DNA of 32,000 nt from an uncultured bacterium. GTDB taxonomy: Bacteria; Auribacterota; JACPWU01. Positions 17,002-30,400 of this stretch are shown one piece after another. Location: the NCBI GenBank assembly GCA_964640155.1, contig CAZXEQ010000002.1, positions 390,001 through 422,000 of the forward strand, read 5' to 3'. Position 1 is the first letter of the stretch, and each line of letters begins with the position of its first letter. The notes under the pieces were generated by a model. The model saw nothing but the letters and a program-made list of their open reading frames with translations. It did not search any database and was not told the DNA's origin. Both the position numbers and the translations under genes were made by a program.

Positions 17002-17859
17002 TCACCCTATTCTTATCTGTTCATAAAACTCACGAATTTTTCTTGTCCCTTTTCTGGCAGGATCTTTACCAATGATTTTGTTGTCGGATTGAACCCACGG
17101 AATAATTCCCATCGAGGAATTGGTTAGAAAGGCTTCATCGGACTCAAGAATTTCTTCAGGCAAGAGAGAGCGAATTTGTGTTTTCAAACCTAAAGAAGCA
17201 GCACTTTGAAGAATGATTTTACGTGTGACTCCTCCTAGAACGCCATCTTCTAAAGGAGGTGTTAAAAGAAGGTTGTCTTGAAGTAAAAAAAGGTTACTTG
17301 CAGTTCCTTCCGTCAAAAGACCGCGTGTATTGAGGAAAATTCCTTCGTCATAGCCCTTCTCAAGGGCTTGCATACGCCCAAGAATATTATCCAGATAATT
17401 GAGAGATTTAATTTGAGACAGGGGGGATGTTTCATTGCGACGTGTGTTTAAAGTAAGGGTGCGGAATCCTTTTTCGTAGAGTTCTGGTTTAAAGGGGAGA
17501 AATTTTTTGCAAATGATCATGAGATTAGGTTTAGAAGGTATCATGGGAGGGACAGATCCCATCCACTTCCCCCGTGTGACCATGATGCGTACATAACAAT
17601 CTTCAAAGCCGGTTTGCTTTGCAACTTCTAAGGTGATTTTTTCTATTTGCTCTATAGCCCAAGCATGCTCTATTTGAAGTACATCAAGACCTTGAAATAA
17701 ACGTTCAATATGATGCTTTATCCCGATCGCCTTCCCTTTGAAAACACGCATGCTTTCAAAAACACCATCTCCAAAGAAAAGTCCTCGATCAAGAATAATT
17801 TCTGAAATTTCGTTTTGTTGAACGAACTGATCGTTTAGATAGACCCAAGTGTTTGTCAT
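17002..17859 (-). CDS. pabC: Class IV aminotransferase-fold protein, probable 4-amino-4-deoxychorismate lyase
   Basis: 285 aa with the class IV fold pattern (GDGVFESMRV, TEGTASNLFLL, GVLGGVTR). It lies immediately downstream of pabB on the same strand. IlvE or Dat cannot be excluded from sequence alone. Confidence 0.7.
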   Translation of the reverse strand: MTNTWVYLNDQFVQQNEISEIILDRGLFFGDGVFESMRVFKGKAIGIKHHIERLFQGLDVLQIEHAWAIEQIEKITLEVAKQTGFEDCYVRIMVTRGKWMGSVPPMIPSKPNLMIICKKFLPFKPELYEKGFRTLTLNTRRNETSPLSQIKSLNYLDNILGRMQALEKGYDEGIFLNTRGLLTEGTASNLFLLQDNLLLTPPLEDGVLGGVTRKIILQSAASLGLKTQIRSLLPEEILESDEAFLTNSSMGIIPWVQSDNKIIGKDPARKGTRKIREFYEQIRIG

Positions 17860-17890
17860 GAGTTTACTTTATTCACCTTTATAGCGATGT

Positions 17891-18032
17891 TATATATAAA
17901 AGTACGTTCTTTATAAATGCGGGTGACACTCGACGGGGTGCCCCATCGAGCGGAACTTTTTGTGAGCACGATGGGGCTGACGAGTGGCAGGACCCGTTTC
18001 TTTCCTAAAAGAACGCACTTTTTTTATATATA
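17891..18032. repeat. Composite imperfect palindrome filling the pabB-pabC spacer: AT-rich outer inverted repeat enclosing a GC-rich core
   Basis: The left arm tatatataaaagtacgttcttt (17891-17912) pairs with the right arm aaagaacgcactttttttatatata (18008-18032). The arms differ by one substitution and a 3-nt A/T-run length difference. Confidence 0.85.
17919..17996 (+). repeat. GC-rich 78-nt palindromic element, copy 1 (intergenic)
   Basis: 51/78 G+C. Internal stems are CGGGT/ACCCG, CACTCG/CGAGTG and CCCCATCG/CGATGGGG. It is the reverse complement of 18855-18932 at 69/78 positions with no indels. Confidence 0.85.
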
Positions 18033-18038
18033 GAATCT

Positions 18039-19457
18039 TTATAACTCCAAAAATATTTTCCCCTTTACCAGGGTTTCTTCGTATTCTGCTTGAGGATCTG
18101 AATCCCAGACAATTCCGCTTCCTACTTGAAAAGAAAGAGTTCCCTCATGATGAATTAATGTCCGAATGAGTATGGACAAATCAGTCATAGCATTAAATCC
18201 AATAACCCCGAAAGTTCCAGTATAAATATTTCTTCGTGTAGGCTCAAGTTCTTCTATAATTTGCATAGAGCGAATCTTCGGGGCTCCTGTGATAGAACCT
18301 CCAGGGAAGGTGGCTTTGAGAACATCAAAAACATCAAGACCTTCTTTTAAAGTTCCTGAGATATCTCCTGCTAAATGAAAAACAGTTGGATGTGTTTCAA
18401 TGCGCTTAAGATCAGACACATGGATAGATCCATATTCACAAACTCGACCTAAATCATTTCTTTCTAAATCAATAATCATGAGAAGTTCAGCGGCATCTTT
18501 TGAACTACAAAGCAGTTCTTCTTTTAGATTTTTGTCCTGTTGAGGCGTTTGTCCACGAGGGCGTGTTCCTTTGATGGGGGAGGTTTGAATGAATTTATTT
18601 TTGATTTTCAAAAAGCGTTCAGGGGAGAGGCTAAGAAGGGTTGCATCAGGGGTTCTAAAATATGCCGCATGAGGGGCGGGATTTTGAATGAGTAATTTTT
18701 GGAATAAATTAAAAGAATCCCCATGATATTCAGAAGTAAATCGTTGAGAAAGGTTGACTTGGTAAATATCTCCTTTAGCAATGTAGTCTTTTGCTTTTCG
18801 AATCGTTTCCAAATAATTTTTTTTGTCGAAGTTCGATTTCCAGTTAAACCGTAGCGGGTCCTGCCACTTGACAGCCCCACCGTGCTCACTAAAAGTTGCG
18901 CTCGGTAGGGCCCTCCGTCGAGTGTCACCCGCAACATCAATTTTCTTGGCAGATGATATTTCTAGATTTTTCTTTAATTCCAAAATTTTTGATTGAACAT
19001 CTTTTTGATTTTCTCCAGGAAGAGCAATAGCAATGATATTTCCTTTTGTTTCAAAAGAGTTATAAAGATAAGCACAATCGTAAAAACCCATCACAATATC
19101 AGGAAAATTTTGATCATCCTTTGATGGGTGGGGAGTACGTTCTAACTTTCTTGCAAAGTCATATCCAATATATCCGATGAGCCCCCCTTGAAAAAAGGGA
19201 GTTTCTGAAAAACCAGATGCGTAAGATTGATATAATTTCGACAATTCTTTTAAAGGGTCAGAGGAAGAAAAAGTTTTTATTTCTCCATTTCTTTTAATGA
19301 TTTCAACGTGGGATCCTTTGCTTTTGAAAATGAGAAAGGGATTGAATCCCATTAGAATTTGTTTTTCATGATGGAAAAAGAAAGAATAAGATTCTTGACT
19401 GAGTGAGAAAAAGACTTCAATGGGAGGGAGTTTTGGAGTCCAAGATTGAATTTCCAT
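18039..19457 (-). CDS. pabB: Aminodeoxychorismate synthase component I (chorismate-binding enzyme)
   Basis: GDIYQVNLSQRF, IDLERNDLGRVC and FPGGSITGAPKIRSMQIIEELEPTRRNIYTG are chorismate-utilising enzyme motifs. Pairing with a class IV aminotransferase favours PabB over TrpE. Confidence 0.82.
   Translation of the reverse strand: MEIQSWTPKLPPIEVFFSLSQESYSFFFHHEKQILMGFNPFLIFKSKGSHVEIIKRNGEIKTFSSSDPLKELSKLYQSYASGFSETPFFQGGLIGYIGYDFARKLERTPHPSKDDQNFPDIVMGFYDCAYLYNSFETKGNIIAIALPGENQKDVQSKILELKKNLEISSAKKIDVAGDTRRRALPSATFSEHGGAVKWQDPLRFNWKSNFDKKNYLETIRKAKDYIAKGDIYQVNLSQRFTSEYHGDSFNLFQKLLIQNPAPHAAYFRTPDATLLSLSPERFLKIKNKFIQTSPIKGTRPRGQTPQQDKNLKEELLCSSKDAAELLMIIDLERNDLGRVCEYGSIHVSDLKRIETHPTVFHLAGDISGTLKEGLDVFDVLKATFPGGSITGAPKIRSMQIIEELEPTRRNIYTGTFGVIGFNAMTDLSILIRTLIHHEGTLSFQVGSGIVWDSDPQAEYEETLVKGKIFLEL
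18855..18932 (-). repeat. GC-rich 78-nt palindromic element, copy 2 (in-frame inside pabB)
   Basis: Exactly 26 codons, translated as AGDTRRRALPSATFSEHGGAVKWQDP, and inverted relative to copy 1. Confidence 0.85.
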
Positions 19458-19501
19458 GGAAGTTTATGATCCTATACAAAAGTATGATCTTTTAAGAAGA
19501 G

Positions 19502-19512
19502 GCGGGTCCTGC
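19502..19512. repeat. 11-nt fragment identical to the element terminus (GCGGGTCCTGC)
   Basis: Identical to 18854-18864, in the 59-nt spacer between the acyl-CoA ligase stop and the pabB start. Confidence 0.45.
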
Positions 19513-19516
19513 TATT

Positions 19517-21223
19517 TTAATCTAATGCTCCACCAATGGGTTGAGCCCCTTTCTGTTGGAGTAAATCAAATATTTCTTTACGCTTGAGTTTAAGTGTGGT
19601 TGTTTTGGGAAGTTCATCCCATATTTCAAAGCCACGTATTCTTTTATAGTCTGCAACTCTTAAATTAGTTTCCTTAATGGTTTCTTGCAACTTGCTTTCA
19701 ATTTCTGAATTGTTCCGAGGAATTTCTCCCGGTTCTATACCCCAAGCTCTGAAAACCTCTAAATTCGGAACTAGAAGAGCATAAACCCATTCATCCATTT
19801 TAAAATCTTTAGATTCTTTTTTAAGTCCAACCACACAGGCTTCTTTAATCCAGGGATGCCGTCCAAGTTCTTCTTCTAATTCTTCTGGGTAAACATTTTT
19901 TCCGCCTCGAGTAACAATCACATTTTTCATGCGGCCTGAAATGTGTAAGAACCCTCGGGCGTCAAAAAAGCCTATATCTCCTGTATGAAGCCATCCTTCT
20001 TTTAGAATCTCAGAAGTTGCTTCGGGATTATGATAATAGCCTTTCATGATGTTAGGTCCTCTAGCGATAATCTCTCCATTCTCGATTTTAATTTGAACAC
20101 CAGGAATGGGACGGCCCACGGAACCGATGGTGTTTTGAGTTGGAGTGTTAACCGTAAGAATAGGACTTGTTTCTGTGAGGCCATAGCCTTGATAAATGGG
20201 GATACCTAGAAGCAAAAATTCTTCTATGATTTTAGGGTCAATAGGAGCTCCCCCTGAAATAAAAAATCTAAAAGAAGGACTTAACCGATTCTTGATCGGT
20301 TTAAAAAGAATATGCCCAATCGGGAGTCCAAGCCATTGTGAAGTTTTAGAAATAATCCGTAGTGTTTTAAAAACGATATTTTGAACCTTTGAGAGAGCTT
20401 CAATTTTAGCTTTGATTTGGTGATACATCAATTGAATGAGAGCAGGAACAGCGATTAAGACGGTCGCGTTATTTTCCTGCATGCGTTCGACGAGAGTCGG
20501 CCCTTTCAGATTTTCAACGTAAGTCACTGTTATTCCCATATGGATTGGAATGAGGAAGTCTGCTGTGATCGCATAGGTATGACAAAGAGGTAAACAAGAA
20601 ACAAATTGGTCATTAGGCGAGAAAGGAAAAATGGAAGAAACAGACTCGACATTCGATGCGATATTATGATGAGTTAACATCACCCCTTTGGGAGATCCTG
20701 TGGTCCCAGAAGTATAGAGAATGATAGCAAGATCTTCTGTTCGAACCTTTTCAAGAGATTGTGTCCCAGACTCTTTTGCTGTGGAAATAAATTTTGAAAG
20801 AGTAAGGAGCTCAGACGTTTCTTCATCCAGGACAATGAGTTTAGGTTGAGAGGGTGCTTTTGGGGCAATGGTCAAAAGAATAGATTTAAATTTAGACGAG
20901 GTGAAAACGACTTTACATTCTGAATGATGGATAATGTTTTCAATGGAATGGTCTTTAAGTTTAGAATCAATAGGAACAACGACCCCTCCGGCCCACAAAA
21001 TGCCAAAAAATGCGAGGCCCCAATAGGGATGGTTTTCTGTCATGATTCCAATACGATCCCCTTTTCGTATGCCTATATTTTTAAGGGCAATCGCTATTTT
21101 TTGAGAAGAATCATGAAGTTCTTGATAGGTGATTTTGAAATAATTTTTTTCTTGTTTAATCTGTAGAGCAATCTTCGATCCAAAAGAAGATGTATTTTGA
21201 ATAAAATGAACGAGTGTATTCAT
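19517..21223 (-). CDS. AMP-forming long-chain acyl-CoA ligase family protein
   Basis: 568 aa with AMP-binding motifs YTSGTTGSPKGVMLTHHN, QGYGLTETSP and TGDIG. Substrate unknown. Confidence 0.82.
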   Translation of the reverse strand: MNTLVHFIQNTSSFGSKIALQIKQEKNYFKITYQELHDSSQKIAIALKNIGIRKGDRIGIMTENHPYWGLAFFGILWAGGVVVPIDSKLKDHSIENIIHHSECKVVFTSSKFKSILLTIAPKAPSQPKLIVLDEETSELLTLSKFISTAKESGTQSLEKVRTEDLAIILYTSGTTGSPKGVMLTHHNIASNVESVSSIFPFSPNDQFVSCLPLCHTYAITADFLIPIHMGITVTYVENLKGPTLVERMQENNATVLIAVPALIQLMYHQIKAKIEALSKVQNIVFKTLRIISKTSQWLGLPIGHILFKPIKNRLSPSFRFFISGGAPIDPKIIEEFLLLGIPIYQGYGLTETSPILTVNTPTQNTIGSVGRPIPGVQIKIENGEIIARGPNIMKGYYHNPEATSEILKEGWLHTGDIGFFDARGFLHISGRMKNVIVTRGGKNVYPEELEEELGRHPWIKEACVVGLKKESKDFKMDEWVYALLVPNLEVFRAWGIEPGEIPRNNSEIESKLQETIKETNLRVADYKRIRGFEIWDELPKTTTLKLKRKEIFDLLQQKGAQPIGGALD

Positions 21224-21308
21224 GTTCTAAAAATATACACGATTTTTAAGCAGAAAGGGTATTAAAAAAGGTATATGGAGGATAAATTCTCTCACTCCTA
21301 ATATGGAC

Positions 21309-21336
21309 TTGAATTTCAAGGGGGGGATGGTAAAAT
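21309..21336 (+). promoter_or_regulatory. Candidate sigma70-type promoter for the pgs cluster
   Basis: TTGAAT (21309-21314), a 16-nt spacer, then TAAAAT (21331-21336), about 30 nt upstream of the pgsB ATG. Based on pattern match only. Confidence 0.3.
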
Positions 21337-21366
21337 GCCCGATAAACTTAGGGGTTTTAAGGCTTC

Positions 21367-27484: not shown

Positions 27485-30400
27485 GTGGATCGGAAAAGAA
27501 AAAGACGCAGCTTGAAAAATCACAATACACAATCCCCCCTATCTCATTTACTTATTGAAAAGCTTAAACAAGCGCTTCTCTCAAAAAAATTAGCTCTCTC
27601 TCTAGAGAAAAAATTAAAAAGTTTTGGTTTTTCAAATCCTCAAACTGCGTTTAGAAATCTTTTAACCCTCAGTGAAAATCCTGTTGCACAACAGGATTTT
27701 TTTGAGATTTTAATCTATCTTTTAGAATTACTTCAGAAATCTCCCTCTTGTGATTTGTCGCTCAATCATTTCGAACGTTTCTGCGCGAATGTCTCTAGTC
27801 CCTCACGTCTCTATACTTTCTTAAAAAAAGCTCCACGTAGTTTTGAAATGATAATTCGTCTTTTTGGTACAAGTCCTGCGTTGTCACAAACTCTGATTCG
27901 CAATCCAGAATATTTTGATTGGCTCTATGACCCTTTTGTTTTAGATAGGACGTGGGGAAAAGAAGATTTTCATAATGAAATTGATGCTGTTCTTGAACAA
28001 ACTCAATATTCTACATCTGCATTAAATACGCTTAGACGTTTCAAACGCCGACAAATGTTAAGAATTGGTGTTAGAGACATGCTCTCTTTAAGTGATCTGG
28101 AAGAAACAACACGTGACATTTCATTTTTAGCAGATGTTTGTTTAGAATGGGCAATGCGTGTGGCGTATCGAGAGTTAAAAGTAAAATTTGGAGAGCCTCA
28201 ATGTGAAACAAATGTGAGTCAGCTTTCTTCTTTTGTGGTGATTGGAATGGGAAAATTAGGAGGACTTGAACTCAATTACAGTTCGGATATTGATGTGATG
28301 TTTGTTTATTTAGAAGAAGGGAAAAGTTCAGGAGGAAGCGAAAAATCAATCGATAATCATCGCTTTTTTACACGACTTGCTGAAAGAATGCTGCAAATCT
28401 TGAGCTCCATGACATCGGAAGGAACGGTGTATCGCGTAGATACACGTTTGAGGCCTGAGGGTGCTACAGGCCCTTTGGTAAGGTCTTTAGAGAGCTTTGA
28501 GCATTATTACGCGACGTGGGGGAGAGCTTGGGAAAGACAAGCCTTGATAAAAGCCAGGGCAGTTGCAGGCGATATCGCTCTTGGAGAGCATTTTTTGAAA
28601 ACGCTTAATCCCTTCATTTATCGGCGGTATATGGATTATCAAGCCATTGAAGAAATGAAAGCCATTAAGCTTCGTATTGAGGAAGAAGTGACTCGAAAAG
28701 GAGAAAATGCACGTGATGTTAAATTGGGGGTAGGAGGGATTCGTGAAATTGAATTTGGTGTTCAAATTCTTCAACTGTTGTATGGAGGGAAAATAGAATC
28801 TTTGCGACAAAGAGGGACTTTGGGTGCAATTCGTAGTCTCCAGCAAGAAGGTTTGCTCAAGAAAGAAGATGTAGATCTTTTAAAAGAGGCTTACGTTTTT
28901 TTAAGAAGGGTGGAACATCTTTTGCAATTGGAGCAAGAAAGACAAACGCATGTTTTGCCTGAGGATTTGGAGAGATTAGATTTATTAGCCCGTCGTCTGG
29001 GATATGCTTCAAAGGAAAAATTTTTGGAACAACATCAAGCCTATACGAAAAAGGTACATTCTTTTTATCAAAATGTTTTTTCAGATTTACAGGCATCAAA
29101 GAGGACAGAAAATCCGCTAGCTCATTTTTTTGAGACAGGAGAGTTGACAGATGAAGAAAAAAAAGTATTCCAAAATTTAGGGTTTAAAGATATCGAAAGC
29201 GCAGCAAGAAATTTTTTGTCTTTGTCTCGGGGACAAGATTATACGCATATTTCATCAGAGACTTTGCGTGATTTTATGAATTTTTTACCCATTCTTTTGA
29301 AAGCCCTTGAAAAATCATTTGATCCAGACCAGTCTTTGATTGGATTAGAAAGGTTTATTACTTCTTATCAAACACGAAGTGGGTTTTTTCAAACGCTTCA
29401 GTCTAGTGAAAAGTTGTGCGAGCTTTTGGTCTTACTTTTTGGTTTAAGCCCATTCTTGGGAGATATTCTGATTCGCAATCCTCATTTTTTTGATTTTGTT
29501 GCAAGTGGGATGTTTGAAGAAAATTATTTCGAAGAAACAGGTCATGATTGTATGCATATCCTGGAGAAAACTCATGATTTTGAAAAGAAAATTTTAATGC
29601 TTCGAGAGTATCGAGACTTAGAAATCTTGAAAGAGGGATTAAGGGATATTTTAGGATTACATGTTTCAATGCAAGTGATCGAGGGGCTAAATCTTCTTGC
29701 AGAAAGAGTTATGATTTGTGCTTTTGAAATTTCAAAAAATTTTTTCGAAGAAAAATATCATCGTCTTTGTCCTTCTCTGGCGGTTATAGGCCTTGGAAAA
29801 TTAGGGGCGCATGAACTCAATTATGCCTCTGATTTAGATGTTCTTTTTGTAGGGCCTGAAAATCAGGAACAACTTCAAGAGGCTTCTCGTTTAGCCAACA
29901 TCTTCATGGATGTTCTGTCAGGGAAGATGACAGGTAAGGCTTTGTATGAAGTGGATACTCGCCTAAGACCCGATGGTTCTAAAGGACCTTTGGTTCCTTC
30001 TCTAGGGGCTTGCCGGGATTATTATCAAGCTTCGAATGCGATTTGGGAAAGAATGGCTTTTACAAAGGCTCGTTTCATTGTGGGAGATGAGACTTTAGGA
30101 AATGCGGCAATCCATCTTCTTTCGCAATTTGTATTTCAAAATCTTCCTATGACAACGCAAGTTGAAGAAATTAAAAGTCTACGTGAACAGATTTTTCAGG
30201 AACGCTGTAAAGATTTACCTGAAGGTTTTGAAGTGAAATCGGGCATAGGGGGTCTTTTAGATATTGAATTTCTTGCGCAATTTCTGCAATTGAAGTGGGG
30301 ACAAGAACATCCAGAATTAAGACAATCTCACACTCTTATTTTACTTCAACGCCTTGCTTCTAGTGGCATTTTACCTCAAGAAGAGGTAGGGCTTTTGGTC

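Follow-up and report, generated by a model that had tools for sequence, protein, structure and literature searches.

Copies of a dispersed, very probably mobile palindromic element in and beside pabB of an uncultured PVC-group bacterium

The window, by which we mean the whole 32,000-nucleotide stretch of DNA analysed here, comes from an uncultured PVC-group bacterium; its closest relatives carry the label Candidatus Auribacterota or Chlamydiae. Minus-strand genes for an acyl-CoA synthetase, PabB and a PabC-like aminotransferase are accompanied there by copies of a GC-rich palindromic sequence: copy A between pabB and pabC, copy B inside pabB and a truncated third copy next to the start of pabB. 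The features of this region are as follows.

17002-17859, minus strand: gene for a pabC-like class IV aminotransferase, in the position of an aminodeoxychorismate lyase and downstream of copy A
17877-17883, no strand: CTTTATA, first repeat of a candidate 7-bp target-site duplication (tentative)
17887-18030, minus strand: copy A at full length, that is, the core with AT-rich outer arms (AAAAGTACGTTCTTT / AAAGAACGCACTTTT) that lengthen the hairpin
17919-17996, minus strand: GC-rich core of copy A, in the spacer that separates the pabB stop from the pabC start; in the orientation of our covariance model it reads CGGGTCCTGCC...GTCACCCGC on the minus strand and scores 100.8 bits
18037-18043, no strand: CTTTATA again, the other repeat of this candidate duplication, which overlaps the stop codon of pabB
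18039-19457, minus strand: pabB, aminodeoxychorismate synthase component I (472 amino acids), the host gene of copy B
18855-18932, plus strand: core of copy B, in frame in pabB (covariance model, 102.2 bits); its peptide is AGDTRRRALPSATFSEHGGAVKWQDP, about residues 176-201 of PabB
19459-19515, plus strand: truncated third copy, comprising the last ~12 nt of the core (GCAGGACCCGCC, minus strand) and the right-hand AT-rich arm
19517-21223, minus strand: gene for an AMP-binding acyl-CoA synthetase, upstream of the truncated copy
21224-21366, no strand: empty site; the orthologous spacer in a related metagenome-assembled genome (MAG; locus L054, 8100-8245) contains a full copy

The arms 17918-17996 and 18855-18933 form by a wide margin the longest inverted repeat of the window (79 nt, 89% complementary, 858 nt apart), the runner-up being 35 nt long at 71%. 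The original prediction described 17919-17996 as the reverse complement of 18855-18932, with 69 of 78 positions equal and no indels, and recomputation by script returned the same alignment, the same differing positions (15, 17, 26, 36, 44, 51, 53, 58 and 60) and the same base composition (51 of 78 G+C per copy against 38.5% for the window). The pair changes were likewise reproduced: T-A versus C-G at pair 26-51, C-G versus T-G at pair 15-66 and C-G versus C-A at pair 24-53. Each copy folds, on either strand, into the predicted three-helix hairpin, at -35 to -42 kcal/mol and with z scores of -3.7 to -4.9 against dinucleotide shuffles. As a GC-rich core the predicted 78-nt unit stands; as the whole element it does not, the intergenic form being ~145 nt long. 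The in-frame position of copy B in pabB, the truncated copy at 19459-19515 and a GT(A/G)G tag that flanks the core on one side in most copies go beyond that prediction.

Two contigs from the Logan assembly of run SRR8893623 enter both cores. Because these independent contigs are identical to the window where compared, the inverted copies are not an artefact of one assembly. Both contigs stop within the cores, at window positions 17950 and 18872. The longest exact run shared by copies A and B is 19 nt, and if the word length of the assembler, which we take to be 31, exceeds this value, the breaks would point to more copies of nearly the same sequence; loss of coverage caused by the hairpins could explain them equally well.

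We searched for the element in genomes, metagenomes and proteins. A genome collection, excluding the genome of the window, was scanned with an 18-mer from the conserved end of the core (GCGGGTGACACTCGACGG). Of the 49 loci returned, 48 lie in GC-rich genomes and are isolated matches due to chance. The other one, L047, corresponds to contig 100 of the MAG GCA_041906865.1 (labelled Candidatus Auribacterota, 39% G+C), and it carries two full copies with 82-88% identity, both of them intergenic; a third full copy of the same MAG lies in L054, a locus syntenic to the window. A gapped-pattern scan of metagenomes picked up two JGI contigs, L050 and L052, that share a diverged copy at orthologous positions; the other two loci of that scan were chance matches. 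A covariance model built from the copies recovered seven full cores at 82-103 bits in 96 kb, with everything else at the level of noise. The 32-kb window holds no match beyond its two full copies and the remnant, eight matches among viral contigs are all attributable to chance and the plasmid and phage collections contain no match to the element.

Copies were also traced through proteins. A full HMMER search with the peptide of both window copies, covering 1.84 billion protein representatives, returned five further proteins (E values of 3e-16 to 8e-9), four of which are short open reading frames called over intergenic copies. The fifth, P0125, is an alpha-2-macroglobulin-family protein of 1913 residues that carries VGDARRGAPSSATFTEHDGADERQDPLLF at residues 983-1011. 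P0125 shares an NCBI contig of 501,885 bp with one of the short reading frames; the contig with the window pabB has the same length, and the two contigs are most likely one and the same. The other three short reading frames lie on NCBI contigs of 620,977 and 198,033 bp. Detection through proteins is limited to copies that a gene caller has translated in one frame, and it recovered none of the three window copies; the documented total of about a dozen copies is a floor. A word-indexed protein search with a profile built from five reading frames returned only P0121 and missed P0001 (E 0.002 locally), so that it carries no evidence of absence. Exact-protein look-ups with P0001, P0125 and a staphylococcal-nuclease-like protein gave no match.

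These results bear on a rival account of the two sequences, a one-off local event that duplicated an 80-nt segment in inverted orientation around pabB, without a wider family, which the original prediction had named as the alternative that could undo its reading. Both full copies and the remnant do lie within 1.6 kb, with the rest of the window free of matches, as such an event would leave them. Further copies were nevertheless found at unlinked loci and in other genomes: full copies at unlinked loci of another MAG, copies on metagenome contigs and peptide traces on large contigs. A local duplication fails to explain copies that are dispersed in this way, and we regard it as excluded.

Nor could we assign the element to a named family, in agreement with the original prediction. 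Rfam gave no match at its gathering cut-offs and, with more permissive ones, noise alone, the plasmid and phage searches were equally without a match, and the literature searched describes no such element for Chlamydiae or Auribacterota. On these searches the family is previously undescribed; the kind of element is already known. A hammerhead ribozyme, suggested by CTGACGAG in copy A, was considered and dropped: the motif is conserved in neither copy B nor the first L047 copy (L047a), and Rfam reports none.

The core is 78-80 nt long and GC-rich (65%), with about 25 modelled pairs in three helices and conserved bulges. In the four full intergenic copies, homologous sequence continues for about 25-30 nt past the core on each side, giving the total of about 145 nt. 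The left arm has the consensus ...AAAGTRYRTTCTTTATAnATG and the right arm ...CTACYTTTTCAAAAnAYRCACTTT; the arms are mutually complementary and extend the hairpin. With DNA parameters the 144 nt of copy A form one long hairpin (z -7.5), and a profile built from the four full copies matches full-length copy A at E 1.8e-44 (nhmmer). The truncated third copy, which occupies the spacer between the synthetase stop and the pabB start, aligns with the right ends of the same four copies (nhmmer, 19474-19515, E 4e-4), and Logan contig L070 from the SRR8893623 assembly has the same synthetase–pabB spacer. Copy B is essentially core only. It lacks the outer arms and amounts to a net gain of 72 nt, with junctions that are ambiguous by a few bases. 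The P0125 copy, judged by its flanking residues, includes the arms. Reading frames over the copies are only short read-throughs, and the element contains no transposase gene.

A four-base tag stands beside the CGGGT end of the core. It reads GTAG in copy B, L047a and the L054 copy (L054c) and GTGG in the second L047 copy (L047b), and it is missing from three of the seven DNA copies, namely copy A (GAAA), the remnant (AGAG) and the L050 copy (AACG). The PL or PP that follows QDP in P0122-P0126 is compatible with GTAG or GTGG. The last G of the tag is able to pair.

The original prediction suggested that the hairpin itself is maintained, and the stems indeed covary across six distinct cores, a small sample. 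Standard pairs fill 92.7% of pair cells, and at five pairs both partners have changed. Covariation scores 0.181, compared with 0.082 for the shuffles, none of which reached as high a value in 500, and when the partners are slid as a control, pairing falls to 35-51%. The diverged copy in L050 follows the same pattern. Its termini (GCGGGTCCTGCC and GTCACCCGC), CCCC bulge motif and loop (TCAC-AAAAGTTGCG) are unchanged, and its inner stem has a different sequence that is nonetheless paired over 12-13 bp with no mismatches and one G-U pair. The covariation supports, rather than proves, the view that the hairpin has been kept; templated correction inside the palindrome, as opposed to selection, could also give rise to it.

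Mobility can be read from orthologous sites in related genomes. The closest PabB, P0002 (74% identity, 448 residues), comes from the MAG that contains L047, and its locus, L054, keeps the gene order of the window (synthetase, pabB, pabC). A second relative, L056, has 62% PabB identity. The three sites of the window compare with these relatives as follows.

Site inside pabB: 24-26 extra residues in the window; absent in L054; absent in L056
pabB–pabC spacer: 179 nt in the window; 12 nt in L054; 62 nt in L056
Synthetase–pabB spacer: 59 nt in the window; 6 nt in L054; 7 nt in L056

In DNA alignments all three window sites are empty in both L054 and L056, and the extra 24-26 PabB residues are missing from P0002 and from nine other homologues. 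The reverse case is the full copy at L054 8100-8245, between a capB-like ligase gene and the synthetase gene, a position that is empty in L056 and in the window (21224-21366). Neither a copy nor a remnant occurs in 64 kb of syntenic loci from three relatives at a greater distance. Because the filled and empty sites run in both directions, we conclude that insertions have occurred in the window lineage and in the L054 lineage after their split. These four filled/empty site pairs, together with the dispersed copies at unlinked loci, bear out the earlier view of a small non-autonomous palindromic repeat (MITE/REP/RPE-like), and both window sequences are very probably copies of a dispersed, non-autonomous palindromic mobile element of this kind.

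The sequence CTTTATA bounds the copy A segment twice, and the empty L054 site has a single TTATAAA, which makes CTTTATA a tentative target-site duplication. It is an AT-rich, common word that recurs within the element, and a chance repeat may account for it. The other insertion sites are too diverged between the compared genomes for target duplications to be read, and the homologues of P0125, which share no more than 41% identity with it and are hypervariable where the insert lies, offer no clean empty site.

The insertions are found at the ends of genes or, in frame, within disordered linkers between protein domains. The peptide of copy B falls between the two PabB domains, Anth_synt_I_N (10-137) and Chorismate_bind (212-465). 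In the AlphaFold model of the window PabB (pTM 0.84), the stretch of residues 169-203 scores below 50 in pLDDT, lacks secondary structure and stands between a helix (151-166) and a strand (206-208); invariant columns in an alignment of 11 PabB proteins, the window protein included, lie on both sides of the insert. As the insert coincides with a low-pLDDT region and is flanked by invariant columns, it is modelled as an added loop in a disordered interdomain linker. The same holds for P0125, whose peptide is located between bMG6 (839-948) and the bait-region domain (1022-1161). Both copies use the same stop-free reading frame, which encodes a hydrophilic peptide. We suggest that selection would leave only insertions that do not break genes.

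A strong hairpin that recurs near genes could instead be an RNA or DNA structure that the host retains for its function, such as an mRNA-stabilising or terminator-like hairpin or a protein-binding site, and that spreads by recombination and not by transposition. Compensatory changes in a strong hairpin would be expected of such a structure, REPs have been reported in such roles (PMC3733652), and four independent intergenic copies lie in co-directional gene pairs in the same orientation to transcription, an agreement that has a chance probability of about 0.125. Against it, the in-frame copies in two unrelated proteins have the opposite orientation, one copy lies between divergent genes, one is a truncated remnant and the filled and empty sites occur regardless of gene function. 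The G-T wobbles, two per strand, also show no strand bias, which speaks against this account; being equal on both strands, they give no information on which strand acts, nor on whether DNA or RNA does. A simple terminator scan found no site at either core, and an intrinsic terminator was dropped as a candidate. We consider a host-kept structure improbable.

Returning to the mobile element, we compared it with three known kinds of palindromic repeat. The Rickettsia palindromic elements (RPEs), in the summaries of Ogata et al. 2000 given by PMC10969869 and PMC3733652, are palindromic, roughly 100-150 bp long, encode no enzyme and have no known transposase; they occur in intergenic DNA and in frame in unrelated genes, with a conserved peptide in one frame at fold-compatible places. 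PMC10969869 describes them as about 150 bp long and in frame in many genes. As in those descriptions, the element is palindromic and stands in frame in PabB (176-201) and P0125 (983-1011), in the same frame and with a conserved peptide. It differs in its host, which belongs to the PVC group and not to Rickettsia, in its GC-rich core (65%) within a genome of 38.5% G+C, and in number, with two in-gene copies documented here against the dozens that these accounts give for R. conorii. The likeness is one of behaviour, as the comparison was made with published descriptions of RPEs.

GTAG-tagged REPs, which RAYT tyrosine transposases mobilise, are known from the PVC superphylum, with GTGG in Opitutus terrae and intragenic inserts of 20-30 residues (Di Nocera et al. 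2013, PMC3733652). The element shares with them a GC-rich stem-loop, complementary stem changes, a location mostly near gene ends with some intragenic in-frame inserts and, in four of its seven DNA copies, GTAG or GTGG at one end; with the repeats of O. terrae in particular it shares the host superphylum. REPs, however, are 20-40 bp long with stems of 5-13 bp (PMC3733652), whereas the core measures 78-80 nt, with its three helices of about 25 pairs, conserved bulges and extra outer arms, and thus falls outside the REP size range. The tag, moreover, is not present in every copy, and we saw no RAYT gene, clusters or dimers. A head-to-head REP dimer was rejected as a description of the core, the tag being on one side only.

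Bacterial MITEs, such as Correia/NEMIS, ERIC and the Coxiella QMITE (PMC10969869), are similarly small, non-autonomous and dispersed, with inverted-repeat ends, a hairpin on transcription and occasional in-frame fusions with host genes. Like MITEs in general, the element is shorter than 300 bp, has no transposase gene, shows dispersed presence and absence and, the pabB copy excepted, has terminal inverted repeats. It departs from them in that the core termini and unpaired motifs are most conserved, not the outermost ends, and in that its target duplication is only a candidate.

If the element were a classical MITE, it would have arisen from an insertion sequence by deletion. A DDE transposase would then move it by recognising the AT-rich inverted repeats that end the ~145-nt form, a short target-site duplication would result, and the GC-rich hairpin would be mere internal cargo. 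The homologous outer inverted arms of the intergenic copies, the CTTTATA direct repeat around copy A with its single counterpart in the empty site, and the size, lack of coding capacity and presence/absence polymorphism all fit this account. The pabB copy, however, reached a new site without outer arms, and the target duplication remains a candidate. It is the termini of the core and the unpaired motifs that are conserved between lineages, and the outer arms that are diverged or, in L050, different, which is the opposite of what is predicted for terminal repeats bound by a transposase. Covarying internal stems would not be expected in passive cargo either. We judge this origin unlikely.

Because the element encodes no enzyme, we propose that it would be mobilised in trans by an enzyme encoded elsewhere. 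The mobilising machinery may recognise the hairpin itself, as a folded single strand, because the stems covary, the termini, bulges and loop are conserved, the GT(A/G)G tag is one-sided and a core-only copy reached a new site. On these sequence features, an HUH/Y1 transposase of the RAYT/IS200 type is a possible, if doubtful, hairpin-recognising enzyme, and it would fit better than classical DDE cut-and-paste; in our estimate the two routes are about equally probable. The gene tables of the window and of the related loci that were fetched list no transposase of any kind, no Y1 transposase and no RAYT. A more speculative version, which we put forward with little confidence, is that the element propagates via a folded single strand and that a RAYT-like or novel nuclease or transposase reads the bulges, the loop and the GT(A/G)G of the ~80-nt hairpin, which is unusually large. 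If true, the element would form a bridge between REPs of 30 nt and RPEs of 150 nt, and the clean filled and empty sites would provide a system for finding the activity behind in-frame palindromic insertions. Selfish palindromic DNA in frame is best known from Rickettsia, where the mover is still unidentified, and the PVC group offers a second, independent setting for asking how palindromic elements move and how proteins absorb them.

For the host genes, the insertions would give the shared pabB–pabC transcript two strong hairpins, one within the coding region of pabB and the other in the spacer before pabC. Annotators of related genomes should know of the element, as copy B adds about 24 residues to PabB and the element may break short-read assemblies. 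The window and its relatives also encode glnE, a glutamine synthetase fragment, pabBC and capsule genes.

The three copies of the palindromic mobile repeat that the 32-kb window contains are clustered around pabB, in a 1.6-kb stretch (17877–19515) and in two orientations. Copy A occupies the pabB–pabC spacer and copy B lies in frame inside pabB, and the third is a truncated copy:

19459–19515, retaining the core's terminal part and the right arm, and filling the gap from the acyl-CoA synthetase stop codon to the pabB start codon.

This insert is missing in relatives, in which the same synthetase–pabB spacer is only 6–7 nt long. This arrangement suggests that the element hops locally or that the region is a hot spot for insertion. 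On a single pabBC transcript, copies A and B could form a mutual duplex of 79 nt; they could also mediate inversion of the intervening segment (17997–18854).

Two contigs from an independent assembly of run SRR8893623 (Logan contigs L069 and L070) are identical to the window over the compared stretches, and both terminate inside element cores. Position 1 of L069 corresponds to window position 17950, within the core of copy A, and L070 ends at window position 18872, within the core of copy B. The longest exact match between copies A and B is 19 bases. These breaks may reflect other near-identical copies of the element or difficult assembly through the hairpin.

The element family extends past the close relatives of the window, as indicated by a diverged copy on two JGI metagenome contigs (46–47% G+C):

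L050, 11145–11227, diverged element copy.
L052, 5455–5537, diverged element copy.

On both contigs, this copy begins immediately 3′ of the TAA stop of a gene for a 661-residue membrane protein. Outside the window, on an NCBI contig of 501,885 bp, an alpha-2-macroglobulin-family protein (P0125; 1,913 residues) carries the same element-encoded peptide as PabB, in frame, at residues 983–1011, between the bMG6 and bait-region domains. Homologues of P0125 share at most 41% identity and are hypervariable at the peptide site. The word-indexed protein search missed the PabB of this window (P0001) and all five proteins with the element peptide from the HMMER scan (P0122–P0126) despite their good scores against the same profile. 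Alignment rows that contain X seem to supply no words; short-peptide negatives from this search are untrustworthy.

Two direct repeats, with 72–74% identity and copies about 1.55 kb apart, lie inside a 1,039-codon glnE-like open reading frame:

27860–27920 and 29435–29495, direct repeat of 61 nt.
28227–28305 and 29772–29850, direct repeat of 79 nt.

Both agree with the known homology between the two halves of GlnE and are not a mobile repeat.

Relatives in which the genes are arranged in this way carry the label ‘Chlamydiae bacterium’ (GCA_016178055.1 and GCA_016178005.1) or ‘Candidatus Auribacterota’ (GCA_041906865.1). The gene content of the locus, which includes glnE, a glutamine synthetase fragment, pabBC and capBC-like genes, suggests a PVC-group host that is free-living, not obligately intracellular.
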